Origin: Bacteroidales bacterium | GTDB taxonomy: Bacteria > Bacteroidota > Bacteroidia > Bacteroidales > BM520 | Length of the DNA stretch: 64,000 nt | Direction: 5' to 3' | NCBI GenBank assembly: GCA_050953245.1 | Contig: JBMNMG010000003.1 | Span: 12,192-76,191 of the forward strand | In this document: positions 3,820 to 63,939 of the stretch, in pieces | Layout: each line of letters begins with the position of its first letter | How positions within the stretch are numbered: position 1 is the first letter of the stretch | Made by a program: the position numbers and the translations under genes | Notes under the pieces: generated by a model | Told to the model about the DNA's origin: nothing | What the model saw: the letters and a program-made list of their open reading frames with translations, nothing else | Database searches by the model: none

Positions 3820-5610
3820 ATGATTACAAACTTAATAGTTTCCTCAGCAAAGAAAAGTATTGAAAAATTATATAATGAACCAAACTTTCCGGAGAGTCAG
3901 TTAGTAGTTCAACCTACCAAAGAAGGTATAGACGGCGATTTTACATTAGTAGTATTTCCTATAAGCAGAGTGTCTAAAAAGAAACCTGCTGAAACTGCGG
4001 AAGATCTTGGAAATTTTATTTTAGAAGATGTACAATATATCGAAAGTTATAGTGTTATTAATGGTTTTTTAAATTTTAAATTAAAAAGTGAATATTGGAA
4101 CAATTTATTAAACCAAAACTTTAAGAATATTAATTACGGTTATTGTACGAAATCTAAAGACAAAAAGATATTAATCGAATTTTCATCTCCAAACACAAAT
4201 AAACCCCTTCACTTAGGTCATGTTCGAAATAATTTAATTGGAATGTCTGTTGCTAATTTATTAGATGCTGCCGGTTACGACGTTGTAAAACTTAACTTAG
4301 TAAACGACAGAGGAGTTCATATATGCAAGTCCATGTATGCATGGCAAAAGTGGGGTAATGGCAGTACTCCGGAATCTACAGGTATTAAAGGAGATCATTT
4401 GGTTGGAGATTATTACGTAGAATTTGCTAAGCATTGTCAAGAAGAAGTTGCTAAATTAATTGAAAATAATATTTCAGAAGAAGAAGCTAAAAAGAATGCT
4501 CCATCTATTAAAGCTGCCCAGCAAATGTTATCCCAATGGGAAAATAATGATAAAGAAGTTATAGACCTATGGAAAATAATGAATAATTGGGTTTATGATG
4601 GTTTTGATATTACTTATAAAAGATTAGGGATTAATTTTGATAAAACCTACTATGAGTCTGAAACATATTTATTAGGGAAAAAAATAGTAGAAGATGCCTT
4701 ACAAAAGGGTATAGTTTATAAAGAAGACGATTCTTCAGTTTGGATTGATTTAACAGATGAGGGGTTGGATAAAAAGTTATTATTAAGAGGCGATGGTACT
4801 TCAGTATATATGACTCAAGATATAGGAACTGCAATTTTAAGATTTAATGATTATAGTCCTAATAAAATGATATATGTTGTTGGCAATGAACAAATCTATC
4901 ATTTCGACGTTTTAAAGCAAATTTTAAAGAAATTCGGATATAATTGGTGGAATACTATTTATCATTTATCGTATGGTATGGTAGAGTTGACCACGGGAAA
5001 AATGAAATCCAGAGAAGGTACTGTAGTAGATGCTGATGATTTAATGGATGAAATGAATAGTATAGCCAGTCAGATTATTAAGGAACAGGGGAAAATTGAG
5101 TATGGAACCAAAGAAGCTGATGAATTAGCTGAAATAGTTGGATTAGCTGCATTAAAATATTATATTTTAAAAGTTGATCCTAAAAAACAAATGTTGTTTG
5201 ATCCAAAAGAATCTATTGATTTTAATGGAAATACAGGTCCATTTGTCCAGTATACATATGCCAGGATACAATCTTTATTATCAAAAGCTAATTTTAATGA
5301 AGATAATTTTGATTACACAATAAATAAAGAGTTTAGCAATTATCAGGAAGAAGAAATAGCATTAATAAAAATGCTCCACGATTTTCCTAATATTGTTCAA
5401 AAGGCTGCAAACGATTTAAATCCAGGTCAAATTGCCAATTTCGTTTATGAATTAGCAAAATGTTATAATAGGTTTTATCAATCCATATCAGTCTTAAAAG
5501 AAAACGATCCAGAGTTAAAAAACAATAGAATTCTCTTGTCTTATTTTACAGCAAATGTTATTAGAAATAGTATGCATATTCTTACTATAGAAGTTCCTGA
5601 TAGAATGTAA
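3820..5610 (+). CDS. argS: arginine--tRNA ligase
   Basis: Class I HIGH motif PLHLGHVRNN, KMSK-like KMKSREG, 596 aa, C-terminal anticodon-binding-like region. Confidence 0.9.
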   Translation: MITNLIVSSAKKSIEKLYNEPNFPESQLVVQPTKEGIDGDFTLVVFPISRVSKKKPAETAEDLGNFILEDVQYIESYSVINGFLNFKLKSEYWNNLLNQNFKNINYGYCTKSKDKKILIEFSSPNTNKPLHLGHVRNNLIGMSVANLLDAAGYDVVKLNLVNDRGVHICKSMYAWQKWGNGSTPESTGIKGDHLVGDYYVEFAKHCQEEVAKLIENNISEEEAKKNAPSIKAAQQMLSQWENNDKEVIDLWKIMNNWVYDGFDITYKRLGINFDKTYYESETYLLGKKIVEDALQKGIVYKEDDSSVWIDLTDEGLDKKLLLRGDGTSVYMTQDIGTAILRFNDYSPNKMIYVVGNEQIYHFDVLKQILKKFGYNWWNTIYHLSYGMVELTTGKMKSREGTVVDADDLMDEMNSIASQIIKEQGKIEYGTKEADELAEIVGLAALKYYILKVDPKKQMLFDPKESIDFNGNTGPFVQYTYARIQSLLSKANFNEDNFDYTINKEFSNYQEEEIALIKMLHDFPNIVQKAANDLNPGQIANFVYELAKCYNRFYQSISVLKENDPELKNNRILLSYFTANVIRNSMHILTIEVPDRM

Positions 5611-5657
5611 AATAATCGATTATTTATAGTACTAAATATTAAGTAAATATTTAGTAA

Positions 5658-14470: not shown

Positions 14471-14545
14471 GGGAGTTTAGCTCAGTTGGTTCAGAGCACC
14501 TGCCTTACAAGCAGGGGGTCACTGGTTCGACCCCAGTAACTCCCA
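14471..14545 (+). tRNA. tRNA-Val (anticodon UAC)
   Basis: Cloverleaf readable by eye: acceptor GGGAGTT/AACTCCC, D-loop AGCTCAGTTGGTTCAGAGC, anticodon stem CCTGC/GCAGG with loop CTTACAA, T-arm GGTTCGACCCC. CCA not encoded. Confidence 0.9.
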
Positions 14546-14816: not shown

Positions 14817-15808
14817 TTACGGTTTTATAGTCCAGTTTATGTTAGACATCCTTTTACGGATTATTACCAATGTTTGAAAAACATCATCGCTACTAGGAAA
14901 ATCTCCATAAACCAAATTTCTAAAACTGCCGTTATATGTAGTTTCTAATTTTGACCATATATTGTCTAGATCTTTAAATATAAGTGATTGATTGGGATGA
15001 TTGACTAACCACTGATTATTATTTTTAAAACTTTTAATATCGTCATTAGCAACTTTTAGTAACATAGTTTCAAAGTTGGATGAGCAGAGAAAATTGGAAA
15101 ATTCTTCATTTTGCAGCAGCTGATGTAAATCGTAAGTGTGACGAATTTTATTTTTCAATTCAATTATTGGGTTATTGCTGTACGAAAACCGAACTAAACT
15201 CATTATTTTTTCACAGATTGTCCTTTTAGGTTCAAGAACTTGAACTGTACATGCTTGCATTTCGTATTTTTCAATAAGCTTAAGTTGTTTTGTGTTGAGC
15301 ATCATTTCACCAATATAAGAATTAATGTTTTTCTTTGTAAATGGTTCATAATATCCAAGCCAAGTGACTTCTAACACTATTTTATCTCGGACTTGTCCAT
15401 AATCACCTGAAAACTCTTTATCGTATCGGTGTGCTGTTTTTCGGAGATTCCCAACTTTGTGTGTCAATCCCTGGATTTCAATTTCTGGGAGTGTATCGTT
15501 AATCGCATTTTCAATATCTTTTAGTTTACGTTTCAACTTATTATCGTTTTCCCCCGTTTCTTCTAATTACCACTATATCTATGTCTTCGGAGAATCTGTT
15601 AATTAATTTGAAACATTTAGCTAAAGAAGTTCCACCTTTGAAAATAGTGTCTGCTCCAATTTTTTTTGCTAAAAATTGATTTTAATGCAAATGTAACCCA
15701 ATAATCTTTTTCAATATATATTGCAGGTAAATTCATTTGCTGTGCAGTCATATTGACAGCATCTCGAAACAGTTTTTTATTCGTGTGAAGTATCATATAA
15801 TATTCCAA
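14817..15808 (-). pseudogene. AbiEii/AbiGii-family nucleotidyltransferase toxin, two frameshifts
   Basis: Three frames join to one DUF1814-like protein: N-terminal ...[12 protein letters not shown], middle [31 protein letters not shown], then the 239-aa C-terminal ORF. Shifts map to a T8 run (15660-15667) and a C5 run (15551-15555). Confidence 0.75.
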
Positions 15809-16521
15809 TTTTCAATAGTTGGCAAATCTGATTTACTTAAGCCTAAATCTATTTTTGTCAATGGGTTAATGCTATTTAATAATGGTTTGGTAATGTTTTC
15901 GGGTTTTTCTAAATTTTCTAGAATTGCACCTAATAGTGCACGCACTCTTGGCGGATACATTAGAGCGTATTTAATCATTAGAGCAATTTCCTTTTCGTCC
16001 ATTTTTGCGATTTTTGTAGTAAGAATTTTTACGGATTTTTGAATAGTTGTATCCGGAATTTTTTTAATGTCTTTGAGTGCATCTAAAAAGCCTAAAATAG
16101 TATAATTGCTTTCAGTCACTTCTGCATAACTCTTTACGGCATCTGCTTTCAATGCTCCCCGATTAATACTTATTCGCTTGCTTCGAGATGCAATTTTTAC
16201 ACGAACAGCCATTTGTGTTGTCAACCCTAACTGATTATATAAATAAGTTCCTGTAACATAGGCAATTCGCTTTCCATCTTTATACAAAAATGGTCGAAGT
16301 TGCTCGTAATAATCGGGTTTCAGTTCACCAAATGCAGTTTTTACTGGTTTATAAAACATCCCTTTGGATATTTTTTTGATTATATTTTTGTTTTGCAGAC
16401 GCTCTATTATTTTAGCAACTGACTGATAATCTTCTCTATAAATTTCCAAATCTGAATAACCGAAAATCTTACCTTCAGGAAATCCCTTTATTTGTTTTTC
16501 TATTTGAGTGGTTAAGTTCAT
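15793..16521 (-). CDS. AbiEi-like / DUF6088-type antitoxin (transcriptional regulator)
   Basis: 242 aa, immediately upstream of the AbiEii gene and overlapping it by 16 nt. Family name is from recollection of this gene pairing. Confidence 0.55.
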   Translation of the reverse strand: MNLTTQIEKQIKGFPEGKIFGYSDLEIYREDYQSVAKIIERLQNKNIIKKISKGMFYKPVKTAFGELKPDYYEQLRPFLYKDGKRIAYVTGTYLYNQLGLTTQMAVRVKIASRSKRISINRGALKADAVKSYAEVTESNYTILGFLDALKDIKKIPDTTIQKSVKILTTKIAKMDEKEIALMIKYALMYPPRVRALLGAILENLEKPENITKPLLNSINPLTKIDLGLSKSDLPTIENWNII

Positions 16522-31371: not shown

Positions 31372-34059
31372 TTATTCAAATATTATTAACTTATTAATAT
31401 CATCAACAATAATCATGCCAACGCGTTCAAGAGTTTTCTTGTTAAAAAGAAAGTCATAAGGTATCTTATTGTTGACTACCACGGGAACATCATTAATTTC
31501 TTTATTTCCAAATCTGACACTCTTTATGTTAATTACAGCTTTCTCTTTAATCATTCCTTGAGAAATTAATTGAGTTGGATCTCCTTCAAAGTCTTCAATA
31601 GTAATTGAACCCTTTTGAAGTAAATCTACTGCTTTTTCTTGTGAAATATAGTTAACTCCCATTAATGGCTCATATTCAAAACTTGCAGTATAACCATTGG
31701 CTATACATTTAGATATCATTTTATTATTTTTTGTTAATACGTAACTTACAAAGTTTTGATTAGGGTCTACAACTATATTTATAAATTCCTGATAATCTGC
31801 AATTTGTGTAGTGTCTTCAGGGTTGTATGTTTCTTGAACAAAATCTCTACTAATAATTGTAAATTCCGTACGTCTGTTTAATGTGTTTGCAGCAAGTTTA
31901 ATAGTTTGATTTGGAAGGGTTTCAATATAATCTTCTGTTAAAGTAGTGCCGGCTGGAAAAGTAAAACCGTTAACGGAATAATCTTCATATAACGTACGAG
32001 GTCTTCGTTCACCATATCCCTTTGCAACTAATCTCTTAGAATTAATTCCTCTGTCAATTAAGTAGGAAACTACTGACTCTGCACGTTTTTGTGATAAAAT
32101 GTCATTACTTTCCAAACTTCCAACCATATCAGTATGTGAGGCAAGTTCTATTACGATATTAGGATTGTCATTTAAGGTTTGAATTAAACCTTGTAATGAG
32201 TCTTGATATTGAGTTCTCAATTCCCATTTGCCAAATTCATATAAAATATCAGGTAATACGATTGGAGCTTCCGGGATAGGGGATAAAATGAAGTTTTGAG
32301 TAAAATCTTTACTTTCGTTTAATCCTATAGTACTAAACTCTCCGCTTACATTAAAATAGCCTTCTTTTTCTGCAATAAGCTCATAAGCGTTATTTTCTTT
32401 TAATTGCGATTTAGTAAAAGTATATTTTCCATTATCATTAGTTCTTACTTCTGCAGTTTTGCCATCTGTTCCCGTCAGTTTTACTATTACATTAGGAACA
32501 TATTGTAATGTGTTTTTATCCGTGATAATACCTGAAACTGTAAATTCTACAGCTGGAATTACAAATGCATATATGTCATCACCACCTCTTCCTCCTTTTC
32601 TGTTAGAAGTGAAGAAACCTTCTTCTTTTTCAGGATGAAATAAAATTCCAAAATCGTCACTACTTGAGTTAATTGGTGCACCTATATTTTCAGGAATACT
32701 CTTAGGGAAACCGTCATTTCCTAAATAAACTCTAAATATATCTAAACCTCCTAATCCTGGATGTCCATTAGATGCAAAATATAAAGTAGTATCGTTTCTA
32801 AAATATGGAAAAACTTCATCTCCTTTAGTGTTTACTAAATTACCCATATTTATCGGCATATCAAAGTTATCACTAACGTTTTCCCTTGTAGCAAAATATA
32901 AATCCTTACCTCCTAAAGAACCCTTTCTATCACTGGCAAAAACTATAGTTAATTCATCGGGACTAATAGCGGGATGCCCATCTATACACAAACTATCGTC
33001 GCCTAATTGAACCGGTTGAGGATCAGACCATCCAAAACCTCCGGTTCGTTTGGCTACAAATATTTTACAACCCCCAAAAATATCTTTGCTATCAGGGCAG
33101 TAAGTGTAATATAATCTATTTGCTCTAAAATTAGTATGACCTGCACCTTCATTACCTGTAGTATTAATAACTTCATCTGTATCTGCATTTTCAGGTTTGC
33201 TCCATTTACCATCTACATCATAACTTGCAGTAAAAAAATCACTAAAATGCTGACCTGTCCATAAATCTATTTCTTTACCTGTAGCCTCAGATCTGGCAGA
33301 TGTATATATAATTGAAGTGTATGATTGGTCGTCCCAAGTAGGACAAAAATCGTCATATTTAGAGTTAATAATTTTAACTTTAGATATTTCGCATTTATTA
33401 GGATTTTCTTGTAGTTTTAAAACTAAATCACAAGATTCTAACCCAGCTAATGCTAAAGGATTATTAGGTGAGAGTTCCAAAAACTCAGCATATTTTTCTT
33501 TTGCTAAAATGTAATCTTCACTATAACGCAATGCATCAGCATATTTTAAGATCACAGTAGAATCTACTAAATGATGTTTATATCTTATGGCGTTTTTGTA
33601 TTGTGCTGTAGCTAATTTTGAATTCCCGGTATTTACATAGCAATCGCCCAAGTTATTTGAAATTCTTCCTCTTTCCTTTCTGTCCTTTTTTGAACGAGAG
33701 TAAGCTTTCTTATATTTTTTAATTGCAGTAGAGTAATAGTTTTCCTGAAATAATTTGTCTGCGGCAACTACGTGTTTATTTTCTTTTTGTTTTTTGTTTT
33801 TTTCTTTTTTATCTTTCTTTTTATTATTTTTTGTTTTTTTCTTCCCTTTATCTAAAAAATCATTTGAACTCTCTGTGTCGCTTGTAGTAATAAACTCGAT
33901 ATCTTCAATTTTTAAAATATTAGAAGACATATTATCTTGTACTAATATATTATTATTTGCAAACGTATATTGCACATTTACAGATAGTATCAAAACAGTA
34001 ATACTTATACTTATATTTAATATCTTTCTATTCATTTTTTTCAATTTCACAAAATACAA
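31372..34059 (-). CDS. OmpA-family protein with TPR, PD40/WD40-like and CarbopepD_reg-like domains
   Basis: C-terminal OmpA peptidoglycan-binding motif (ELASHTD...SNDILSQKRAESV), Lys-rich low-complexity linker, TPR-like segment. An alternative start at 34035 (MNRKIL...) gives a better signal peptide. Confidence 0.85.
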   Translation of the reverse strand: MYFVKLKKMNRKILNISISITVLILSVNVQYTFANNNILVQDNMSSNILKIEDIEFITTSDTESSNDFLDKGKKKTKNNKKKDKKEKNKKQKENKHVVAADKLFQENYYSTAIKKYKKAYSRSKKDRKERGRISNNLGDCYVNTGNSKLATAQYKNAIRYKHHLVDSTVILKYADALRYSEDYILAKEKYAEFLELSPNNPLALAGLESCDLVLKLQENPNKCEISKVKIINSKYDDFCPTWDDQSYTSIIYTSARSEATGKEIDLWTGQHFSDFFTASYDVDGKWSKPENADTDEVINTTGNEGAGHTNFRANRLYYTYCPDSKDIFGGCKIFVAKRTGGFGWSDPQPVQLGDDSLCIDGHPAISPDELTIVFASDRKGSLGGKDLYFATRENVSDNFDMPINMGNLVNTKGDEVFPYFRNDTTLYFASNGHPGLGGLDIFRVYLGNDGFPKSIPENIGAPINSSSDDFGILFHPEKEEGFFTSNRKGGRGGDDIYAFVIPAVEFTVSGIITDKNTLQYVPNVIVKLTGTDGKTAEVRTNDNGKYTFTKSQLKENNAYELIAEKEGYFNVSGEFSTIGLNESKDFTQNFILSPIPEAPIVLPDILYEFGKWELRTQYQDSLQGLIQTLNDNPNIVIELASHTDMVGSLESNDILSQKRAESVVSYLIDRGINSKRLVAKGYGERRPRTLYEDYSVNGFTFPAGTTLTEDYIETLPNQTIKLAANTLNRRTEFTIISRDFVQETYNPEDTTQIADYQEFINIVVDPNQNFVSYVLTKNNKMISKCIANGYTASFEYEPLMGVNYISQEKAVDLLQKGSITIEDFEGDPTQLISQGMIKEKAVINIKSVRFGNKEINDVPVVVNNKIPYDFLFNKKTLERVGMIIVDDINKLIIFE

Positions 34060-34195
34060 ATTTAAAAGTTTTTTTCTAATAAACTACTAACAAAACAAAA
34101 ATATACTAAGAAGTTGATTATTATAGTTTATGTATTATTAGTATTTTTATTCTGTTACAAGAGAAAAGTATTTCTGAACTCTTTAAATAGGATAT

Positions 34196-34330
34196 CCCCA
34201 AAAATACGCCACCCCAAATATATAATTCAAATTAATATATTTGGGGTGGGAGTGGTACGAACCTTTCGGCACGATCCTGTCTGATAATTTATTAATCCCC
34301 ATCAGCATCAGGGGAAACTGTACATTCGAT
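34196..34330 (-). ncRNA. family A structured RNA, copy 1 (leader of the OmpA-family gene, ends in a terminator hairpin)
   Basis: Core GGACAGGAUCGUGCCGAAAGGUUCGUACCACUCCC is shared with copy 3. Bipartite helix CCUG..CUGAU/AUCAG.CAGG. 15-bp perfect hairpin 34209-34249 plus a U-run, ~135 nt before the ATG at 34059. Confidence 0.45.
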
Positions 34331-34393
34331 GTAAGTATAATATTATTTTTAATAAATCTTATATCTACAATAAAATTAATAAGATTTATGTAA

Positions 34394-34490
34394 TGGGAGA
34401 GCCCGATAATTTAATATCGAGCTCAACATCTGGTCCGAACCTTTCGGCACGATCCTGTCTGATAATTCCAAACCCCATCAGCATCAGGGT
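34394..34490 (-). ncRNA. family A structured RNA, copy 2 (tandem, upstream of copy 1)
   Basis: Same 5' helix and GAAA hairpin as copy 1. It has a different 3' hairpin (GAGCTCGATA/TATCGGGCTC) and no U-run. Confidence 0.4.
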
Positions 34491-34535
34491 TATTTTTAAA
34501 TTTTTTTGCAATTATAATTATAATGCAATTTTTTT

Positions 34536-34615
34536 AAAAAAAATATGAGTGAACATTACATCCACTGCCCCGGCTAAGCTCATGAATCACTCGCCGCCTT
34601 CGGCTTTTTACAGCA
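34536..34615 (-). ncRNA. family B small RNA cassette, copy 3
   Basis: Own TATATTTG -7 box (34619-34626, minus strand). Conserved GCUGUAAAAAGCCGAAGGCGGC...AGCUUAGCCGGGG scaffold. Terminator AGTGGA/TTCACT plus a U8 run. Confidence 0.45.
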
Positions 34616-34765
34616 TTACAAATATACATAAATTTTTTAAGAATAACAAAAAAGCAAAAAAACTTTTTTTATTAAAATAAATATTTTAAATTTGTAAAAA
34701 TTATTTTATAAGTATTAAATAATTTTAACGAAGATTAATTAACTAACCAAATTAAATTTAAAATT

Positions 34766-42061: not shown

Positions 42062-42067
42062 TTCTTT

Positions 42068-42296
42068 GGGATGGCTTCCCGAAAAATCTGGGATGGCTTC
42101 CCGAAAAATCCGAGATGGCTTCTCGAAAATATTGGGATGGCTTCCCGAGAATTCCGAGATGGCTTCTCGAAAAAATGTTGTATATATCAGTATATCAGAG
42201 CTTTATGTTTGGGATGGCATCCCCAGAAATCTGAGATGGCTTCCCTGAAATATTGAGATGGCTTCCCGAAAATATTGAGATGGCTTCCCGAAAAAT
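42068..42296. repeat. tandem array, 9 copies of a 22-bp unit (consensus GAGATGGCTTCCCGAAAATATT), one 33-bp interruption
   Basis: Counted directly. Units start at 42068, 42090, 42112, 42134, 42156, 42211, 42233, 42255 and 42277. The array runs from just after the M20 stop codon to the terminator at 42297-42330. Confidence 0.9.
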
Positions 42297-42330
42297 AAAA
42301 AAAGTCGTGTAAAAACTTACACGACTTTTT
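42297..42330. terminator. intrinsic terminator
   Basis: AAGTCGTGTAA/TTACACGACTT stem flanked by an A-run and a T-run. Confidence 0.75.
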
Positions 42331-52159: not shown

Positions 52160-52381
52160 ATGGGATTTTCATATAACAAATTATGGAAGTTATTAATAGA
52201 TAAAAATATGAAAAAAACAGACTTACAATGTGCAATAGCAACAACACCCAAGACAATAGCAAAAATGGGAAGAGACGAAAATGTAAGTTTAGAAACATTA
52301 GGAAAGATTTGTGAATATTTTCAGTGTGATATTGGAGATATTATTGAATACAGAAGAAAGAATGAAGAGGAAATCAAATGA
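52160..52381 (+). CDS. small XRE-family HTH protein (candidate R-M controller, C protein)
   Basis: 73 aa HTH (KKTDLQCAIATTPKTIAKMGRDENVSLETLGKICEYF). GGAG sits 6 nt upstream of the ATG. ATGA overlap with the first methyltransferase gene. Confidence 0.6.
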   Translation: MGFSYNKLWKLLIDKNMKKTDLQCAIATTPKTIAKMGRDENVSLETLGKICEYFQCDIGDIIEYRRKNEEEIK

Positions 52382-53406
52382 GATTTATTGGTGGCAAAAC
52401 GCTGATTATACCATATATATTAGAATTAATTAAAGAAAAAACAATAGATGTGAAAAGTATATCAGATGTATTTGCTGGTTCAGGAGTAGTTTCTCGTGAA
52501 TTTAAAAATCTCGGATATGATGTTATATCTAACGATTTGATGTATTTTTCATATGTGTTATTAAGAGGAACAGTTGGGATAAATTCTAAATTAGAATTTA
52601 TAAATTTAGGTATATCAGATCCAATAGCATATCTAAATAAACTTACTTTAGAAAATATGAATTTAGATTTAGAGAACTGCTTTATTTACCAAAATTATAG
52701 TCCTAATGGTGGAAGAATGTATTTCACAGAAGATAATGCTTTAAAAATTGATTTAGTTAGGGCTCAGATTGAAAACTGGTATGAAGCTTCTATGATCAAT
52801 GAAGACGAGTATTTTTACTTACTTGCATGTCTTATAGAAGCAGTACCTTTTGTAAGCAATATAACAGGTGTATATGGAGCTTATTTAAAGCATTGGGATA
52901 AAAGGGCATTAAATAATTTAGAAATAAAAAATGTAGATTTATCAATTAATAATTCAGTAGGACAAGCATATAATGAAGATTCTAATAAATTAATTGAAAA
53001 TATAAAAACAGATTTAGCATACTTTGACCCACCATATAATCAAAGACAGTACTTGCCTAATTATCATGTATTAGAAACAATTGCTAAATATGATTCTCCT
53101 AGAATAAAAGGAGTGACTGGATTAAGAGATTATTCTGAACAAAAAAGTGACTATTGTAAAAAAGACTCAGTTTACAATGCTTTTGAAGATTTAATCAAAA
53201 AGACTAATTCGAAATATATTATTCTTAGCTATAATACAGAAGGATTATTATCCCATGATGAGATTATTAGTATTTTAGAAAAATATGGAAAGCGAGATAC
53301 TGTAGACTACAAATTTATCGACTATAGAAGATATAAGAACGCACATACAAATAAAAATAAAAACTTAAAAGAAATATTATATTTTGTAGAAAAGGAGCAG
53401 TTATGA
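52378..53406 (+). CDS. N6-adenine DNA methyltransferase (Dam/D12 class), equivalent to the N-terminal half of M.FokI
   Basis: MRFIGGK start, DVFAGSG (motif I), FDPPY (motif IV). 342 aa. Confidence 0.85.
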   Translation: MRFIGGKTLIIPYILELIKEKTIDVKSISDVFAGSGVVSREFKNLGYDVISNDLMYFSYVLLRGTVGINSKLEFINLGISDPIAYLNKLTLENMNLDLENCFIYQNYSPNGGRMYFTEDNALKIDLVRAQIENWYEASMINEDEYFYLLACLIEAVPFVSNITGVYGAYLKHWDKRALNNLEIKNVDLSINNSVGQAYNEDSNKLIENIKTDLAYFDPPYNQRQYLPNYHVLETIAKYDSPRIKGVTGLRDYSEQKSDYCKKDSVYNAFEDLIKKTNSKYIILSYNTEGLLSHDEIISILEKYGKRDTVDYKFIDYRRYKNAHTNKNKNLKEILYFVEKEQL

Positions 53407-54251
53407 GCGGAAATTATATAAAATCACCATTTAATTACATTGGAAATAAACATAGATTATTAGCTCAAATATTGCCTCTATTTCCTCAAAATATAGACAC
53501 TTTCTATGATGTGTTTTGTGGTGGTTTAGATGTTTCTGTTAATGTTAAAGCGAATAGGAAAATAGCTAATGATATAAACTATTTTGTAATTGAAATTTTA
53601 GAAATGTTTAAAAAGACTGATAGCAAAGAACTTTTACAAGATATTGATGATGTAATAAGTAAATTTAATTTATCTAAAGATAACAAAGAATCATATTATG
53701 AATTTAGAGAATATTATAATAAAAATAAAGACCCGCTTTTGCTATATGTTTTGATGTGTTATTCCTTTAATTACCAGTTTAGGTTTAATTCAAATCATGA
53801 CTATAATAACCCTGCTGGAACTAATAGGAGTAGTTTTAATGAAAATATGAAAAATAGACTTACTTCTTTTAGAGACAAACTTTTCAATATAGAATTTAGC
53901 AATAAGAATTTTAAAGAATTTGATTTTTCTAAAATTAAAAGTTCAGACTTTGTATATTGTGATCCGCCTTATAGAAGCTCTGTAGGTTCATATAATGATG
54001 GTAAAAGAGGATTTGAAGGATGGACTCTTGATGATGATCTAGCCTTATTTGATATATTAGATGAATTAAATGATAGAAATATTAAATTTGCATTATCAAA
54101 TGTATTTTTTAATAATGGATTAGCTAATAAAGAGTTACAAGAGTGGAGTAGAAAATATAAAGTCCACTTGTTAAAGATAAATTACTCAAATAGTAATTAT
54201 CAACGTAATAAGCTAGGCGAAACTGAAGAAGTTTTGATTACAAATTACTAG
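53403..54251 (+). CDS. N6-adenine DNA methyltransferase (Dam/D12 class), equivalent to the C-terminal half of M.FokI
   Basis: NYIGNKHRLL, DVFCGG (motif I), CDPPY (motif IV). 282 aa. AAGGAG SD and ATGA overlap. Confidence 0.85.
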   Translation: MSGNYIKSPFNYIGNKHRLLAQILPLFPQNIDTFYDVFCGGLDVSVNVKANRKIANDINYFVIEILEMFKKTDSKELLQDIDDVISKFNLSKDNKESYYEFREYYNKNKDPLLLYVLMCYSFNYQFRFNSNHDYNNPAGTNRSSFNENMKNRLTSFRDKLFNIEFSNKNFKEFDFSKIKSSDFVYCDPPYRSSVGSYNDGKRGFEGWTLDDDLALFDILDELNDRNIKFALSNVFFNNGLANKELQEWSRKYKVHLLKINYSNSNYQRNKLGETEEVLITNY

Positions 54252-54259
54252 GAGGAAAT

Positions 54260-56033
54260 ATGGCAGAAAGAACATTGGGTTGGATACAAAATCCATCAAG
54301 TTTTGAAAATTTAAAAAATGTAGTTTCTGTTTTTGATAAAAATACTGATATGTATAAGGAAATCTTAAATACTAAACTTCCTAAATTAGTAAAAGATTTA
54401 GAATTACAAAATAAACTTATTTCAGAAATGAAAAAAGATCCACTTGAAATGGACTATGTTTTATTAAAAGGTCATGGTATAAAATCAGGTCAGAAAAGAG
54501 CAGATGCAGGGTGTAGTGGTATTGTTCAAGCTGCCATTACAACACAAGGTGGTAGAGCTTACACAGATGATTGGACTGCTGATGGATTTTTAAGATGGGG
54601 AATATCCATAGGACTTTTAGATTATGATACAGAAAAAGATACTGTCTCTATAACACAACTGGGAAAGGATTTTGTTTACTCAGATTCTGAAGATTTGGAT
54701 AAAGAAATATTAACTACTGCATTTTTATCATATCCACCAGCAGTAAGAATTTTGACTTTATTAGAAAATGGTGAGCATTTAACTAAGTTTGAATTAGGAA
54801 AACAACTTGGTGGACTTGGAGAAGCTGGATTTACCTCTATACCTCAAGATTTATATATCCAAGCAATAGAACTAGCAGCTGATAAAGACAAAGCAAGTAT
54901 TCGTTCAAATACAGAAGGTTCAGCTGATAAGTATGCTAGGATGATTTCTGGCTGGTTATCTAAAGTCGGGCTTAGTTCAAAGAATTGAAAAAGAAGTTTC
55001 TACTAAGATAGGTAGATGTCGAGTATAAAGTTAAAATTGGTCATTCTTTTAGAATTACATTAAAAGGAATCAAAGAATTAAAAAGGGCAAGGGGTATATC
55101 ATCTTCATTCCAAAGACTGATAAAATAGTGTATTGGCAAATGTTAGCAACTAAGGGCAAGGACAGAGACTATATTAGAAATAGACGTGGACATATAATTA
55201 ATTCAATTACTAATAGAGATAGAACCTTAGAAGATATAAAAGTTTATCTGTCAGAAAATGATATAAAAGAAAGCATTGCAACAATAGAAGATGAATTAAA
55301 AGTTATTGAAGCGATAGGATTATCAGTTAAACATGGTAGGAATGGATATTCGATAGATGATAATATAATTAAATTGGCAATTCCAAGAACAAAGATTTCT
55401 AAGACTAATGTATTGGAATTAAAAGACAAAGTTAGGGATAGATTGAAATATGTTGATCACAGATATCTCGCACTAATTGATTTAGCTTATGACGGAACTG
55501 CTAATAGAGATTTTGAAATTCAAACAATAGACCTTTTAATTAATGAACTTAAGTTTAAAGGGGTTCGTCTAGGAGAAAGCAGAAAACCAGATGGAATTAT
55601 ATCTTATAATATTAATGGCGTAATTATAGATAACAAGGCTTATTCTACTGGATATAATCTACCAATTAATCAAGCAGATGAAATGATTAGATATATCGAA
55701 GAAAATCAAACTAGAGATGAAAAAATAAATTCAAATAAATGGTGGGAAAGCTTTGATGAAAAAGTTAAGGATTTCAACTATTTATTTGTATCATCTTTCT
55801 TTAAGGGAAACTTTAAGAATAATTTGAAACATATAGCTAATAGAACTGGTGTAAATGGTGGAGCTATTAATGTAGAAAATTTATTGTATTTTGCAGAAGA
55901 ATTAAAAGCTGGAAGATTATCTTATATTGATTCATTTACGATGTATGATAATGATGAGATATATGTAGGAAATATTATGGATTATAGTAATGTAAAAATT
56001 GCTGCTGAAGAAGAAAGTCATTATTCGATTTAA
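54260..56033 (+). pseudogene. FokI-family type IIS restriction endonuclease, three frameshifts
   Basis: The N-terminal ORF aligns by eye to the FokI recognition domain (GWIQNPSSFENLK...YPPAVRILTLLE...SADKYARMISGWL). The C-terminal ORF aligns to the FokI linker and cleavage domain (SRKPDG...IIDNKAY...GYNLPINQADEMIRYIEENQTR). Frame path is 2>0>1>0 between 54970 and 55126. Confidence 0.85.
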
Positions 56034-56083: not shown

Positions 56084-57724
56084 TTGAAATACGCTCAATA
56101 TTACAAATGTGCTTTGCAAGTAAATCCAAGCGCATACTCTCAATATCGTGGGAAAGAAAAAATGGATGAATCAGAATATAATACACAAATCTTAAATATA
56201 TGTAAAGAAGAAAATATTAGAGTAGTTGGTTTAGCAGATCATGGCTCAGTTGAAAGAGCAGAAAATCTAAGAAAACTTCTAACAGATAATGGTATTTTAG
56301 TTTTTCCAGGATTTGAAATATCTACGGCAGAAAAAATTCATATAGTTTGTTTATTCTCTCCAGAAACAGATGCTAATGAGCTAAACCGTATTCTAGGACA
56401 ATTAGGAATGCCAGAAATAAAAAATGGTACAGAAAAAAGTAATTTATCCTGTATTGATATAGCTAAAAAGATAGCTGAAAATGATGGATTTTGGTATGCT
56501 GCACACATAACTAGTGATAATGGAATTTTAAAGCTAGGTCAATTACAACATGTGTGGACAAATGAATTATTAATAGCGGCTCAAATTCCAGATAGTGAAG
56601 AAAAAATAGATCCAAACTATAAAAATATAATTAAAAATAAAGAACCTCATTATAAAAGAAAAAACGTTGTTGCTTATATAAATGCTAAAGACATTTGCGA
56701 TCCAATGGATTTGAAACTTGAAACTGCAACCACACTTATTAAAATGTCTGAATTAAACTTTGATTCATTTAAGTCTGCATTTACAGATCCAACATCAAGA
56801 ATTAAGCTAAATAGTTCTATAAAAACAAAATATAAAAGTTATATCTCAAGAATATGTGTAAAAGGCGGTTATTTAGATGGGCTGGAGCTAGATTTCTCTG
56901 ATGAATTAAATACTATAATAGGTGGAAGAGGTACCGGAAAATCGACTTTAATTACTTTTATAAGATATGTATTAGGAAACTACTCATATGACAAAGAATT
57001 AGAAAAAGAAATTGAAGACATGATTAAAAATAATTTAGGGACATCTGGAGAAATAAATATCTACTTATCTTCATATTCACTTAATGGGCAAAAATATAAG
57101 TTAATAAAAAGATATAATCAAAATACTACTGTATTTAATGAAGATGGTAGTTTGTCTGAATTAACTATCACAGATCTTTTGCCTAAGATAGAAATTTATG
57201 GTCAAAATGAATTAATCGACGCAATTAAATCTTCAGAAACAATTACTAATATTGTTAAACGTTTAATAAAAATTGATGAGAATATTTTAAAAGAAAAGAA
57301 AATGTTCTATAAAGAATTGAAAGAGAACACCCAAAAGATAATCTCCATTAACGAGGAAATAAATAAATTAGGAGCAACACGTCAGGCATTATTAAATTTA
57401 GCAAATGATATAATTAGGCTAAATGAAGAAAATAAAATTTTAGGTTTAAGTAAAGAAGAACTTTCTTTTTATCATGCAATCAGTAATCCTGAGAATATTT
57501 CTGACTTTTATACAAATAAAGAGTTAATAGACTTAACACAAGACCTGACCCAGACTATTTCAAAGGAGATGACCTCCGACTGGATGATGAGAGAATCTGG
57601 CATAGCAAATATGAGAAGAACAGTAAAAAGGCTGTTGGCAGATTATAACTATCCTGAAAACCATCGAAGTGATATTATTGATCTAATAGTTGAGCAAGCA
57701 GAGTATTTTGATATAGGAGCATAA
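56084..57724 (+). CDS. chimeric ORF: PHP-like domain plus Walker-A ATPase N-lobe fused to an HsdR C-terminal (DUF3387-like) tail
   Basis: N-terminus has YKCALQVNP...GLADHGS...GFEIS..KIHIVCLF (PHP-like), then Walker A GGRGTGKST and a coiled coil. The last ~110 aa (LGLSKEELSFYHAI...DWMMRES...VKRLLADYNYP...VEQAEYF) match the type I HsdR C-terminus. No Walker B or signature region is visible. Confidence 0.55.
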   Translation: MKYAQYYKCALQVNPSAYSQYRGKEKMDESEYNTQILNICKEENIRVVGLADHGSVERAENLRKLLTDNGILVFPGFEISTAEKIHIVCLFSPETDANELNRILGQLGMPEIKNGTEKSNLSCIDIAKKIAENDGFWYAAHITSDNGILKLGQLQHVWTNELLIAAQIPDSEEKIDPNYKNIIKNKEPHYKRKNVVAYINAKDICDPMDLKLETATTLIKMSELNFDSFKSAFTDPTSRIKLNSSIKTKYKSYISRICVKGGYLDGLELDFSDELNTIIGGRGTGKSTLITFIRYVLGNYSYDKELEKEIEDMIKNNLGTSGEINIYLSSYSLNGQKYKLIKRYNQNTTVFNEDGSLSELTITDLLPKIEIYGQNELIDAIKSSETITNIVKRLIKIDENILKEKKMFYKELKENTQKIISINEEINKLGATRQALLNLANDIIRLNEENKILGLSKEELSFYHAISNPENISDFYTNKELIDLTQDLTQTISKEMTSDWMMRESGIANMRRTVKRLLADYNYPENHRSDIIDLIVEQAEYFDIGA

Positions 57725-57959
57725 TGATGTTTTAAGAAAATTAATCAACGATTCAATCAGATCTAAACCTGCAAGTAAACTCTTGATAAATTTTCTGTTA
57801 AAAAAGAAACTGATAGTATTCCTTTTGAAATAAAAAAATTAGGGATATTAATATACCTGATAGACTGGATAAATTAAAATCACTTGCAATGAAAATGATT
57901 AAAAAAACACCTTTTTTGTTTATTTCTTGTGTATTATAAAATAAGTATTATATTTGTAG

Positions 57960-58038
57960 TAATAATTAGTAAGAGTCTTTTTAAACGAGAGCGTGGATTG
58001 TTGTTCCACGAGGCAGTTTAAGAAGACTCTTATTTTTT
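57960..58038 (+). ncRNA. family C small RNA cassette
   Basis: TATATTTG -7 box at 57949-57956. Long hairpin TAAGAGTCTTTTTAAAC/GTTTAAGAAGACTCTTA encloses CGTGGA/TCCACG, followed by a T6 run. Confidence 0.4.
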
Positions 58039-58154
58039 ATTCCAATATCAGATTATTGCTGTTAGAAATACTATTAAAACAGAAATTGTTCTCAACTTTT
58101 TGTTAGCGATAAAATATTCTTTTGTTTATTTGAAAAATATTATTATATTTGTAA

Positions 58155-58231
58155 TGCTGTAAAAAGCCGAAGGCGGCGCGAGTAACGTCAAGCTTAGCCG
58201 GGGAGGTGGATGTAATGTCCACCTTTTTTTT
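58155..58231 (+). ncRNA. family B small RNA cassette, copy 1
   Basis: TATATTTG -7 box at 58144-58151. GCCGAAGGCGGC hairpin. Terminator GGTGGA/TCCACC plus a T8 run. Confidence 0.45.
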
Positions 58232-58272
58232 GTTTTCACTTGTTTATTTGAAAAATATTATTATATTTGTAA

Positions 58273-58348
58273 TGCTGTAAAAAGCCGAAGGTGGCGCGAG
58301 TAACGTCAAGCTTAGCCGGGGAGGTGGATGTAATGTCCACTTTTTTTT
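58273..58348 (+). ncRNA. family B small RNA cassette, copy 2 (118-bp tandem duplicate)
   Basis: -7 box at 58262-58269. Near-identical to copy 1, with one C>U change that keeps a G-U pair in the first hairpin. Confidence 0.45.
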
Positions 58349-58588
58349 GATTAAAAAAATACTTTTTTTTGTGTTAACTCGTTCCCATTATTATTCTTTT
58401 CGAATATTTCCTTACTATATTTCACAGATTTTTTTTCAAACAAAATAACAGTCATTTAGCTTATTGGTTATAAAATCTGTTTTCTATTAACTGTTCTTCT
58501 TGACAATAATTTGTTATTAAATTGATTTCTTTCATTTTTAGCAAATCAAGAATAATAATTTTACATCCTTGTTTTATTGTTTCTGAGA

Positions 58589-58951
58589 ATGATGCAAATG
58601 ATGCAGCAACATTCCATCTTTCAATTTGTAGTTATCATGTTTATTAGTATTCCAATAGGGATAATCTTACTCCATACACTCCATATTCTACCCAAAATGA
58701 TATATGTGATTCTCTAGTGTTACAGGCACATTGGATTCACTTGTTCAAGTTTCGGTTGCAACACTAAAGGAGCTTTAGAAGTAGCAAAATATGCTGCTTA
58801 TAACGATCCTATTTCGTATATAAATGCTCTGTTAAGATATTACAACATATGTAGTAATCCTGAAGAGTTATCAGACGATCAATGGGCATTGCAGTATAAT
58901 TTGCTACTTAGAATCAGAAAAGAAGAAAGTGAAAAAAACTCATTTAAATAG
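58589..58951 (+). pseudogene. hypothetical phage-remnant ORF with internal TAG
   Basis: One 121-codon frame: a 42-codon membrane-like N-terminus, TAG at 58715-58717, then a 77-codon hydrophilic tail ending 127 nt upstream of the tape measure gene. Confidence 0.3.
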
Positions 58952-59077
58952 ATCAAAAAGGTATTTAAACACTCTTATTAAAAAAGCAACAAATAATATT
59001 GCAAGCACAACACCAACTACTGTATATATGATATTCATGGTAACAAGGTAATTAACACACAAATATAATAAAAACTA

Positions 59078-61230: not shown

Positions 61231-61752
61231 ATGATAAGAATAACAACAGGAGACCAAACCATAGATATACATACTTATGACAAAGCAAACTTACGTGTAC
61301 CAACAGTTGCGGGATACCCGCAACATATTATGAGTATTCCTAAGAACAACGTGATATTACGCAATAAAAACAACGATACTATTGAATTTTTTGACGTAAA
61401 AATTGATGTAACTAAAGCAAACAATATTGTAAGTACACCACTTGTAAACAGACATGGTGAAATCAAAGAATTTATACAACAACAAGATTATACAATCAAA
61501 TTTAGTGGTAACATCATAGAAGAACGTGGAATATTCCCGTATGAAGAGTTAAAGAAGTTAAATGACATCTTAAATGAAGAGGACAGTTTAGATGTATCAA
61601 GTGAATACTTAAATTGCTTTGGAATTACTAAAATTGCATTAGAAAAAGCTAATTTTAAACAAAGTAGTATTAAATATTATAATTTAATGCCTTTTGAATT
61701 AAATTTTAAAAGCGATATGGATTATGAGTTTTTAATAATGGATAATCAATAA
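61231..61752 (+). CDS. hypothetical protein in the distal-tail-protein position
   Basis: Starts 12 nt after the tape measure stop. 173 aa. Assignment rests on position only. Confidence 0.35.
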   Translation: MIRITTGDQTIDIHTYDKANLRVPTVAGYPQHIMSIPKNNVILRNKNNDTIEFFDVKIDVTKANNIVSTPLVNRHGEIKEFIQQQDYTIKFSGNIIEERGIFPYEELKKLNDILNEEDSLDVSSEYLNCFGITKIALEKANFKQSSIKYYNLMPFELNFKSDMDYEFLIMDNQ

Positions 61753-62279
61753 TCTTTATATTTTTCGTAATAATCAATGTTAGAATCATTTACATATACT
61801 TTTAAATCAGGAATGCTGTTGTCTATTTCAATGGTAAAATCAGCACCATATGAAGCAAACCTCCATGTACAACATGGATCGGAGCTTGATATTCCAGCAG
61901 CTGTTTCAACAACAATGTCTGCTTCAGATTCATATTGGACAAAACTAACGCTAAAATCTGCACCATATTCAACTATTTCAACCCAACCTTTTAGTGGTAT
62001 TCCTTTATATGTACAGTATTCAAGGTCTAAGTCCGGTCGTGGTCCATCTGATTTGATTTCTATGATTTCTTCATCATTGCTTTTATTGCGAAAGCTATTA
62101 GGTTCGACGATTTCAATGATAGTTCTACCATTTAATTTAAAATATTTCATTAGCACGCCATCTACAATCTTTATGGAATCATATACAATACCAGAATCAT
62201 CATTTGGATCTGTAACTTGTGCTTGTAAAGCTATTGGAAGTAAAATAAGAGTTGTAAAAAATAAAATGAAACGTTTCAT
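61746..62279 (-). CDS. hypothetical secreted protein with internal YGADF repeats
   Basis: Start moved to MKRFILFFTTLILLPIALQAQ (signal peptide). Repeated (V/A)xYGADF(S/T)(V/I) segments. The opposite-strand 170-aa ORF is Ser-rich and looks antisense. Confidence 0.5.
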   Translation of the reverse strand: MKRFILFFTTLILLPIALQAQVTDPNDDSGIVYDSIKIVDGVLMKYFKLNGRTIIEIVEPNSFRNKSNDEEIIEIKSDGPRPDLDLEYCTYKGIPLKGWVEIVEYGADFSVSFVQYESEADIVVETAAGISSSDPCCTWRFASYGADFTIEIDNSIPDLKVYVNDSNIDYYEKYKDY

Positions 62280-62448
62280 AATAGGGTAATTTAACATGTT
62301 AATTTTAAGATGTAACGTACAAATATCATGCAAAAGTGGCAAAATAATTACATTTAATTATGTTAATGAGATAATTGTAAATAAAAAATGGGATTCTATC
62401 CAATTTGCAAACACTTTAAATTCAGGCTATTAACTTGCAATTTCAAAT

Positions 62449-62486
62449 AAAAGAAAGGGAAGCCAAAAGAAAGGGAAGCCATCCCC
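62449..62486. repeat. 2 x 16-bp tandem repeat containing the reverse complement of the 42-kb array core
   Basis: AAAAGAAAGGGAAGCC x2 followed by ATCCCC. 62473-62485 is the reverse complement of GGGATGGCTTCCC. Confidence 0.8.
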
Positions 62487-62611
62487 AAAATAGAGATGTA
62501 ATGGCGCTGTTTAACGAAGGTGATAGTCGTGATTTTGGAATATGAATGTGAAAGAATTATGGAATTTTTTGTTTTACTTGTTTAACTAAAAAAAAGTACT
62601 ATATTTGCAAC

Positions 62612-62747
62612 GTATTAACCTTGATGCCGATAGGTTCATAATTATCGGACAGGATCGTGCCGAAAGGTTCGTACCACTCCCGCCTCAAATAGGTAGAAAT
62701 GTGTAAATAGATAGAATGTATTATGTATTTGAGGCGGTGTATTTTTA
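62612..62747 (+). ncRNA. family A structured RNA, copy 3 (orphan, no downstream gene)
   Basis: TATATTTG -7 box at 62601-62608. The 34-nt core is identical to copy 1. Compensatory changes occur in two helices. Terminator hairpin 62681-62738 plus a U-run. Confidence 0.45.
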
Positions 62748-63177
62748 AGGAGTTCTGACTTGTTTCTCTCCCGTAATAATAATGGATTCAATCTGGTCCA
62801 TGCATGCAAGAAAGATCCCCTAAAAACGACTTTTTCCAATCAAAATTTATTGAAAAATTCTCATTTTTATCTGATAATTAAACTTTTATTAAATCAGATT
62901 AAGAAAAAGCCTTTTTTTATTAAAATATTAGGTACAATTTGGATAAAATCAGAATGATATTAGACTTTTTTTTGTCTTAATTTTATCTATTTTTTGATAT
63001 TAGACATACGGATGGCTGTTCGGCAATTAAGCGAATTTGGAGGTTTGAGTAGAGTAGTTTTTAGATATAATTGATATTAATTATATCAATTATTTTTATT
63101 TACTTGTTACTATTAATTAGCTGATATTAAGCCTACTCAGTACTTTTGTTTTATCAATATGGATTTTGTTATATCAA

Positions 63178-63939
63178 CTAATCAATTTGATATAGGTTAT
63201 GATCTATATCTTTGCGTTCATGTAAATGGATAAAATTCTCAATATCACCGAATAAGCCATAAAAATCAAAAAAGCGCTTATTGAGATCCTTAATGTAATT
63301 TGGATTTAAGAAATCGTTATACGAGCACCATTCATAATCTTTATAGCTTATCCGAGGATTGTGGTGGGTGACATTAGTATTTACATATATGATGCAATTA
63401 CGCAAATACACAGGTGATGTAATCCTCCTGCGCTTATAATTTTTTCTAAATAAACTTCCCGATCTATCATATTTTATATTAAAGTAACTTGCGTATTTAG
63501 AAAAGAAAATTCTAAGTTTTTCACTTACAATACGTGCTGCAATATAAGCTTTAGACTTACCCGCTTCAATAAATTTTTGAGCGAATTTAGCTACATCTTT
63601 ATCCGTTTCTATTAGTTTAAGAATTTTGCTTGGACTTTTAATCTTGATAACAAAATGAAAGTGATTAAATAACAAAGCATGGCAATAAACATATGCCACC
63701 GGTTCCAGATAATGTTTTATTTCATTGATAAATTTCTGACGATCTTGTCTGTCATGAAAAATCATTTCACCATTGTTTCCTTGATTATAGATGTGAAAAT
63801 CTTCAAGTGGAAACATAAGTTCTGTCTTGCTGTTGCCCTGATCCTTGTGGATCCTTTTCTTGTACTTTTTAGAATTAGTATTAATGATTTTCTCGTAAAG
63901 TTCATTAAACTTCCTCTTTTTAATAACATTAATTTGCAT
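63178..63939 (-). CDS. HUH (Y1) transposase, IS200/RAYT-like
   Basis: HUH motif in LLFNHFHFVIKIK and a Tyr-containing helix RNCIIYVNTNVTHHNP. 253 aa. Hairpins flank the ORF (63067-63093 and 63967-63983). Confidence 0.7.
   Translation of the reverse strand: MQINVIKKRKFNELYEKIINTNSKKYKKRIHKDQGNSKTELMFPLEDFHIYNQGNNGEMIFHDRQDRQKFINEIKHYLEPVAYVYCHALLFNHFHFVIKIKSPSKILKLIETDKDVAKFAQKFIEAGKSKAYIAARIVSEKLRIFFSKYASYFNIKYDRSGSLFRKNYKRRRITSPVYLRNCIIYVNTNVTHHNPRISYKDYEWCSYNDFLNPNYIKDLNKRFFDFYGLFGDIENFIHLHERKDIDHNLYQID

Follow-up and report, generated by a model that had tools for sequence, protein, structure and literature searches.

The study of small RNAs in Bacteroidota has only begun and, to our knowledge, very few families have been defined. 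Among temperate phages, short transcripts whose promoter is closely followed by a terminator are represented by the lambda PR'-tR' 6S RNA/StxS, the lambda oop RNA and the P22 sar RNA. Arrays of sibling small RNAs (sRNAs) such as Listeria LhrC1-4, Vibrio Qrr and Neisseria NgncR_162/163 have defined regulators, seeds and targets (PMC4211561). In Bacteroides thetaiotaomicron, FopS/GibS comprise multicopy paralogous sRNAs including a phage-borne copy, for which phage-mediated spread has been proposed; FopS, which has reportedly been deposited in Rfam, has susC-like mRNAs as its targets and binds RbpB (PMC11697453). These RNAs set a precedent in Bacteroidota for multicopy sRNA families that phages may have helped to spread (PMC11697453). 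Here, we analyze an array of three cassettes, designated C, B1 and B2, in a 64,000-nt stretch of the Bacteroidales bacterium assembly GCA_050953245.1 (contig JBMNMG010000003.1), hereafter the window, in whose numbering the coordinates are given. With moderate confidence, we read this array as three independently transcribed sRNA genes of new families, linked to phages or other mobile DNA and located in a decayed prophage border.

The three cassettes follow one another on the plus strand from 57,949 to 58,348, each composed of a TAnnTTTG box, a structured RNA of 75-80 nt and a U-run. A preliminary description of this DNA had proposed three such units, with promoter box, structured segment and T-run, in a 1.35-kb stretch lacking any open reading frame (ORF) of at least 60 aa; all of these sequence features were recovered in place, and the ORF list of the window is empty at this threshold from 57,725 to 59,077. 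The elements of the array, the remnant of a phage gene lying within it and the third window copy of family B are given below (CM, covariance model).

57949..57956, plus strand: promoter -7 box of family C, TATATTTG, TAnnTTTG type (sequence; the box is also present in 22 of 23 viral variants at a matching distance)
57960..58040, plus strand: family C RNA, ~80 nt (fold, model R2 and viral matches)
58037..58102, minus strand: stub of a phage head-morphogenesis gene, 21 codons plus stop; its C-terminus, ...QKVENNFCFNSISNSNNLILE-stop, is of LPD3 type (translation; motif match only)
58144..58151, plus strand: promoter -7 box of B1, TATATTTG (sequence; box position conserved in other lineages)
58154..58231, plus strand: family B RNA copy 1 (B1), ~78 nt (CM R1, 102.4 bits; helix covariation; terminator scan)
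58262..58269, plus strand: promoter -7 box of B2, TATATTTG (in 118-bp register with B1)
58272..58348, plus strand: family B RNA copy 2 (B2), tandem duplicate of B1 (CM R1, 96.5 bits)
34536..34626, minus strand: family B copy 3 (B3), RNA at 34,536-34,617 with its own TATATTTG box at 34,619-34,626 (CM R1, 86.2 bits)

The RNA of unit C, folded as 83 nt, forms a rod in which a 19-bp outer stem (57,968-57,986 pairing with 58,016-58,034) is followed by an internal loop of 5+5 nt, a 6-bp apical stem and a 7-nt loop, with a U-run at 58,033-58,038. Its fold energy of -35.7 kcal/mol corresponds to z = -8.1, and none of 200 shuffles was as good. The apical stem-loop at 57,992-58,010 (CGUGGA-UUGUUGU-UCCACG) differs by one loop change from the viral consensus and matches model R2 with 33.7 bits (E = 7.5e-6), and the internal loop (GAGAG and AGGCAG) has exactly the sequence seen in the viral contig L057. 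The unit therefore combines the TAnnTTTG box, long outer stem, internal loop, U-run and apical stem-loop of family C, which was defined in this analysis by the apical pattern CG(Y)GGA-UUGUAGU-UCC(R)CG. The corresponding degenerate search string, CGYGGATTGTWGTTCCRCG, has 92 exact matches in IMG/VR viral contigs, comprising 23 distinct variants. In 22 of these 23, a TAnnTTTG box lies a few bases (5-12 nt) before the stem, and 22 fold as a long hairpin bearing the invariant hairpin at its tip, the exception (L133) bearing two such hairpins. The 22 folding variants reach z = -5.3 to -8.1 against mononucleotide shuffles although their outer stems share no sequence; stems that are unrelated and yet pair amount to wholesale covariation. 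MAFFT combined with RNAalifold was unable to align these outer stems, which were checked by folding each variant. In the apical stem, the single variable Y:R pair also covaries, being U-A eight times and C-G seven times. Among the loops found with model R2, UUGUAGU predominates; the window has UUGUUGU, and UUGCAUU, UUGCAGU and UUACAGU also occur. Positions 1, 2 and 7 of the loop stay constant, and the middle triplet takes different forms (GUA, GUU, GCA, ACA). Two C-type tips stand in tandem at L133 2,414-2,491 (UUGUAGU with UUACAGU) and at L116 1,003-1,098 (UUGUAGU with UUGCAGU), and such pairs with different triplets suggest that the tip is a modular unit open to duplication and retargeting. 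Neither BLAST against plasmids and GenBank phages with C, which returned nothing meaningful, nor a literature search by its sequence, which found no paper containing it, connected C to anything described. Family C is a large group of Bacteroidota phage RNAs, ~70-85 nt long, that has so far gone undescribed.

The setting of family C is recurrent. In the viral loci examined, C lies downstream of an antirepressor-type gene wherever the upstream gene was typed (P22_AR_N, or Bro-N + ANT) and immediately faces a convergent gene for a head-morphogenesis protein of 399-542 aa, after which an SPP1-type portal follows; both head proteins that were typed end in LPD3 (PF18798). Inspection of these loci at the sequence level shows the U-run of C extending into the final codons of the head gene that faces it (e.g., ...GIKKK-stop), and the head proteins facing C are only 25-34% identical. 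Among 79 viral loci fetched through the head protein alone, and hence unbiased as to the RNA, the contents of this slot differ, consisting of C, of a promoter-hairpin cassette with a GCC-GAAA-GGC tip resembling the M2 module treated below (L234), of other hairpins or of no recognisable cassette. In the window, the stop codon of the 21-codon stub overlaps the U-run of C in the same manner and the stub is retained, with the gene body cut off where the B1 cassette begins; the antirepressor is absent, the upstream ORF encoding an AAA_23/T1RH_C protein. The stub was missed, being too short, when LPD3 proteins were compared with the window by tblastn, and was recovered via direct translation, by which its ...QKVENNFCFNSISNSNNLILE-stop was seen to resemble the viral C-termini CLIWSVSDNPSILNNIE, YFYSITDSNKVLQ and IYSVSDNESILNIIK, each directly before a stop codon. 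Because this remnant of the facing phage gene remains, the window copy of C appears to be a prophage relic sitting in its ancestral slot. The preliminary description had suspected a link to mobile or foreign DNA, and this link is stronger than was guessed, with C being a phage family (92 viral contigs) and the window keeping a phage-gene stub.

Regarding family B, the units of B1 (58,117-58,230) and B2 (58,235-58,348) are spaced by 118 bp and are 96% identical ungapped, or 98% identical over 109 nt by blastn. They differ by a C>U change at 58,294 (GGCGGC>GGTGGC), which retains a G-U pair in either candidate helix, and by one terminator base, just as reported beforehand for a 118-bp tandem duplication. 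The minus-strand B3, whose own box, matching flanks and altered middle had been noted as well, differs from B1 and B2 in the tip of the central hairpin (GAGUGAUUCAUG). The 22-nt 5' flank of the family occurs three times in the window against 0.00 expected (100 shuffles). From its 5' end, B1 reads GCUGUAAAAAGCC, then forms an imperfect hairpin (GGCGGC...GCU..GCC) whose tip is variable, and continues through GGGGAG and the 3' hairpin GGUGGAU-GUAAU-GUCCACC to U8; a generic terminator scan calls its hairpin and T-run (two sites against 0.2 expected). The RNAalifold model has three elements, of which the first is a short helix at the 5' end, the second an imperfect hairpin in the centre (GGCGGC..GN-loop-NC..GCU..GCC) and the third a 3' hairpin capped by the conserved loop GUAAU. 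Over the nine known copies, 93.8% of the cells in the two longer helices are paired and four pairs are changed on both sides, against 31-44% in slid controls; the central hairpin is closed by A-U in five copies, by G-C in two and by U-A in one. Only four versions of the centre occur among these nine copies from four lineages, and most keep R-UAAY. What looked variable is the tip of a conserved hairpin changing by compensatory substitutions, that is, ordinary helix evolution and not spacer turnover. The 3' hairpin, which carries a UGUA-containing 7-nt loop, is more than a terminator, because the loop UGUAAUG is conserved in the first B copy of locus L004 although a separate terminator comes after it.

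The nine distinct copies of family B are distributed over four Bacteroidales lineages, namely the window species, a Bacteroidales metagenome-assembled genome (MAG; L001), a Lentimicrobiaceae MAG (L004) and one metagenome contig (L017). In a scan of the genome collection, only two of ten loci were real (L001 and L004), the rest being GC-rich chance matches; a metagenome scan gave one real locus in 15 (L017), a preceding metagenome scan having found none. All B copies have a TAnnTTTG box, located 4-5 nt upstream of the conserved GCUG/GCUU start wherever the start is present, and six of the eight complete copies end in a hairpin and T-run. L004 harbors three tandem cassettes and a fourth 4 kb away, so that tandem arrays occur both there and in the window. 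L017 repeats the C-then-B order of the window, with a family C cassette immediately preceding B. Four different patterns and the covariance model did not find B in IMG/VR, where the pattern matches obtained (L149; 45 matches to AAAAAGCCGARGGCGGYG) proved to be chance or coding sequence (KKAEGG), and BLAST with B against plasmids and GenBank phages gave nothing meaningful. None of the families A, B or C (A is described below) was found in ~340 kb around orthologues of the OmpA-type gene adjoining B3 in the sister taxon, Odoribacter sp., Lentimicrobium and others, and the syntenic site of the sister taxon (L036; flanking protein 88% identical) is devoid of the B3-A1-A2 block and of the neighbouring LRR gene. 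In assemblies of the window species, contigs break off within the repeats, the metagenome contig L012 beginning inside B1; a comparison of L012 and L034, both of this species, shows no turnover like that of spacers. Family B is chromosomal, rare, multicopy and patchy, and C is viral and widespread, which disagrees with the earlier treatment of the three units as one system.

The neighbours of B differ in every lineage, and no gene recurs besides that of a small secreted phrog_6462 protein, which in the 2.17 Mb of DNA fetched adjoins B cassettes only. The B-linked genes are located as follows.

Window 61,746-62,342, minus strand: phrog_6462 protein
L017 2,584-2,913, minus strand: phrog_6462 protein
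L004 4,175-5,517, minus strand: three paralogous phrog_6462 proteins

This protein has a signal peptide and repeated VRIVEYNEDF-like motifs; its JGI label, PF19647 Septknot, was not reproduced in a Pfam scan. The B array of L004 is bracketed by ~70-bp repeats that resemble, by eye, the upstream region and first codons of phrog_6462-like genes. In L001, a short tandem repeat of CGATGTACGATYGA units and a terminator-like hairpin were also observed at 5,590-5,650 on the minus strand, upstream of the B copy.

A further family, A, has three copies. A1 and A2 are located at 34,196-34,497 on the minus strand, upstream of an OmpA/PorE-like gene, and A3 lies at 62,600-62,745 on the plus strand, inside the phage remnant, with a perfect TATATTTG box. 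Each copy is composed of a 5' module (CCCCUGAUGCUGAUGGGG...AUCAG), a 3' module designated M2 (AUCGUGCCGAAAGGUUCGUACCA) and a terminator, and the 5' module of A3 covaries to AACCUUGAUGCCGAUAGGUU...AUCGG. M2 was also seen alone with its own promoter in the Mu-like viral contig L028, in a slot of the same kind as that of family C, and fused behind B in L001. Family A/M2 has no Rfam match.

With regard to the surrounding DNA, ORF domain typing placed a FokI-type restriction-modification (R-M) system and the AAA_23/T1RH_C protein to the left of the array, and a tape-measure protein, a baseplate hub and more phage-like genes to its right. The window encodes many Por_Secre_tail proteins, and the TAnnTTTG boxes likewise fit a Bacteroidota host; the closest named relative of its OmpA-type protein is that of Odoribacter sp. 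OttesenSCG-928-L07 (63% identity), other Bacteroidales being closer. The whole C-B-B array is bracketed by a direct repeat detected by repeat search.

57896..57917, plus strand: 22-nt direct repeat, left copy (TGATTAAAAAAACACCTTTTTT), 91% identical to 58,348-58,369
58348..58369, plus strand: 22-nt direct repeat, right copy

These repeats can be read as the trace of array growth by duplicated segments of T-run and promoter, rather than as a target-site duplication. The R-M system itself (52,378-56,033) includes two D12-class adenine methyltransferases and a FokI homologue split into two ORFs, one with the D1-D2 recognition domains (54,260-54,988) and one with D3 and the cleavage domain (55,128-56,033), which is either a split enzyme or a pseudogene. 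The tRNA-Val(UAC) gene (14,471-14,545) is adjoined at 14,817-16,521 by genes for an AbiEii-type nucleotidyltransferase toxin and for a DUF6088 protein, which form a small defence or toxin-antitoxin islet. Nine tandem 22-nt units with GATGGCTTCCC are found at 42,067-42,297 between the genes of an M20 and an M49 peptidase, and a single inverted copy at 62,473-62,483, ~130 nt upstream of A3; the unit has 12 matches in the window against 0.17 expected, and the array may comprise protein-binding sites.

The view of the array as three sRNA genes draws on observed sequence conservation, structure with covariation, the conserved slot, patchiness and copy number. Each unit would have its own Bacteroidota promoter, called from the conservation of TAnnTTTG, and its own predicted intrinsic terminator. 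That the units are independently transcribed, as first proposed from the window alone, is supported by a promoter box, structure and terminator which are conserved across distant lineages with unrelated flanks. For C, a double role in termination and as a recognition tip seems most likely. The hairpin would terminate transcription from both directions, that is, of both convergent units, and would release an abundant short RNA, the invariant tip of which could be recognised by a conserved partner, either a protein or another RNA loop. Its outer stem could take any sequence that pairs, and its tip would be kept as a near-invariant 6-bp stem with the 7-nt loop UU-NNN-(G/U)U; termination alone cannot explain this tip. 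B1, B2 and B3 would be sibling sRNAs of a family spreading by local duplication, and they probably act in trans, the conserved purine-rich single-stranded segments being the likeliest contact surface. A sibling-sRNA role is the best fit for B, given its several paralogues (three in the window, four in L004), its promoter boxes and the hairpin and T-run found in most copies.

Several points weigh against this reading. Transcription of the units, like action in trans and the identity of a partner, is something that we infer from the sequence, and the putative promoters depend on a short motif in AT-rich DNA. The promoter of C, feeding straight into a terminator, could represent transcriptional punctuation without a role in trans. 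Family B comprises only nine copies, and most of its helix 1 is invariant and hence uninformative; other pairings, such as GCCG:CGGC or a 5' GCU:AGC helix, may form instead. B was missing from all 93 viral loci searched, and its adjacency to C may be an accident of insertion and not a matter of function. Additionally, RNA-duplex predictions of B against neighbouring gene starts, including those of phrog_6462-like genes, yielded only long implausible duplexes.

The alternative that survives best is that the units are transcriptional punctuation only, the hairpins being intrinsic terminators that work in both directions and shield convergent phage modules or neighbouring genes from one another, the promoters ordinary ones or by-products, and the RNAs functionless. 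The overlap of the U-run of C with the stop codon of the convergent head gene would agree with this, as would the many C variants beginning with AAAAG, which is a U-run on the opposite strand, the unrelated hairpin cassettes filling the same slot in other phages and the freely varying outer stems. A terminator, however, needs neither an invariant 19-nt tip maintained opposite head proteins only 25-34% identical nor a conserved promoter box 5-12 nt before the stem, and the 3' loop of B is kept even where a separate terminator comes after. We regard punctuation as the sole function as a minor possibility.

A second alternative concerns C and tRNAs. Anticodon stem-loops of tRNAs and T-box specifier loops have a 5-6 bp stem and a 7-nt loop with 5' UU and a variable central triplet followed by a purine, the anticodon arm of Escherichia coli tRNA-Cys being GCGGA-UUGCAAA-UCCGU. 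The C loop, UU-NNN-GU, might thus be an anticodon-loop mimic or decoy, or might present a codon that kisses a tRNA, and so titrate a tRNA, a tRNA-modifying enzyme or an anticodon nuclease in phage-host conflict. Loop positions 1, 2 and 7 are invariant around the varying triplet; UUGUAGU is complementary at six of seven positions to the loop CUUACAA of the window tRNA-Val(UAC), the window triplet GUU is likewise a Val codon, and C is phage-borne and adjoins a gene with a polyvalent-protein domain. The tip of C in locus L243 (GCGGA-UUGCAUU-UCCGC) is close to the tRNA-Cys arm, a likeness to be taken as a lead only. In contrast to a tRNA, C has no acceptor, D or T arm and has G/U-U and not A-A at positions 37/38; neither ARAGORN nor the Rfam tRNA model calls it, B and M2 do not fit the pattern, and the argument is purely one of sequence, in which any such 7-nt loop is complementary to some tRNA loop. 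We consider it improbable that C is directed at tRNAs. If it were, C would provide temperate Bacteroidota phages with a minimal, hairpin-only means to manipulate or protect host tRNAs, and B, which stands beside C in two lineages and has the UGUA-containing loop, could take part in the same conflict.

The preliminary description had favoured guide-like RNAs, in which a conserved scaffold presents a variable central segment that selects nucleic-acid targets. The B3 centre does differ from that of B1/B2 between identical flanks, and a hairpin tip is a common site of loop-loop recognition. The few central forms, most of them R-UAAY and with a covarying closing pair at the helix tip, the compensatory nature of the changes within a short helix and the lack of spacer-like turnover in L012 and L034 speak against it; the window holds no site complementary to the variable 13-mer, and no candidate effector was found among the typed neighbours in the four B-bearing lineages. 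The guide model is accordingly very hard to sustain. Fragments or ends of an insertion sequence (IS) or miniature inverted-repeat transposable element (MITE), the outcome by which the preliminary description would have been overturned, or cis-acting leaders or riboswitches of downstream genes, might be suspected from the multicopy nature of the elements, from the assemblies breaking inside the repeats and from the position of B3, A1 and A2 upstream of the OmpA-type gene, and are highly unlikely, given that no terminal inverted repeats surround the units (the only inverted repeats being internal hairpins), that the similarity of copies ends at promoter and terminator, that no plasmid or phage database match and no transposase among the typed flanking ORFs was found, that B1 and C are followed by a promoter or convergent gene stub and B2 by decayed DNA, leaving no gene to regulate, that neighbours differ between lineages and that there is no Rfam match even at E up to 10.

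Concerning known RNA families, an Rfam 15 scan of the whole window returned only the tRNA at 14,471-14,545, and permissive scans of 57,700-58,500, 34,050-34,700, 62,350-63,200 and three viral loci gave chance-level matches far below threshold. A literature search by sequence strings and by "Septknot", including supplements of B. thetaiotaomicron sRNA papers, found no match. Other candidates were considered and set aside. The best CRISPR-DR match reached 17.5 bits, the threshold being 50 bits, and fell on the minus strand over the B1 promoter region instead of over any of the RNAs; C has a 10-nt likeness to type I-C repeats (GCGUGGAUUG), the structure of which is not shared. A retron ncRNA or a type III toxin-antitoxin system is at odds with the neighbours (FokI-type R-M, AAA_23 protein and tail genes) and with the own promoter and terminator of each repeat. 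B is not antisense to the phrog_6462 gene, its reverse-complement translation being unrelated, and does not mimic the rRNA GTPase centre, as GCUUAG and GUAAU, the motifs in common, fold differently in the two. An attP/attC site was rejected given that the conserved part is the tip and not the base of the hairpin and that the promoter is conserved, and reading the 5' end of B as a leaderless mini-ORF (AUG-CUG-UAA) was rejected given that the first codon is AUG, UUG, CUG or ACG among copies.

The array thereby leads to one well-supported new family, C, with more than 90 phage instances, stem covariation, an invariant loop and a fixed slot, which is suited to a covariance model, and to two smaller families, B and A/M2. 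Located in temperate gut phages near antirepressor and polyvalent-protein genes, C could plausibly be involved in the control of lysogeny or in conflict between phage and host. In Bacteroidales, small RNA cassettes sit at gene truncation sites, namely of the LPD3 gene in the window and of phrog_6462-like genes in L004, which raises the question of mobility.

In comparison with the described systems, C resembles the short lambda and P22 RNAs in its temperate-phage location, its length of ~70-80 nt, a promoter leading nearly straight into a terminator hairpin and, as for P22 sar, its proximity to an antirepressor. Unlike P22 sar, C lies downstream of the antirepressor on the same strand and is not antisense to its start; unlike all of these RNAs, its read-through would run antisense into head genes rather than into late genes, and its invariant apical loop has no counterpart among them. 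FopS/GibS differ from the window families in sequence and structure, with no match in either and none of the window families matching Rfam 15, and FopS is built from a single-stranded 5' seed and a terminator, whereas B has two helices and a GC-rich core. They are alike in phylum, promoter type, many paralogues per genome and short RNAs ending in a Rho-independent terminator (PMC11697453). Family B is patchy between close relatives, which sets it apart from the sibling sRNA arrays, and it shares with them near-identical tandem or dispersed sRNA genes, each with a promoter and terminator of its own, as exemplified by the head-to-tail pair of B1 and B2.

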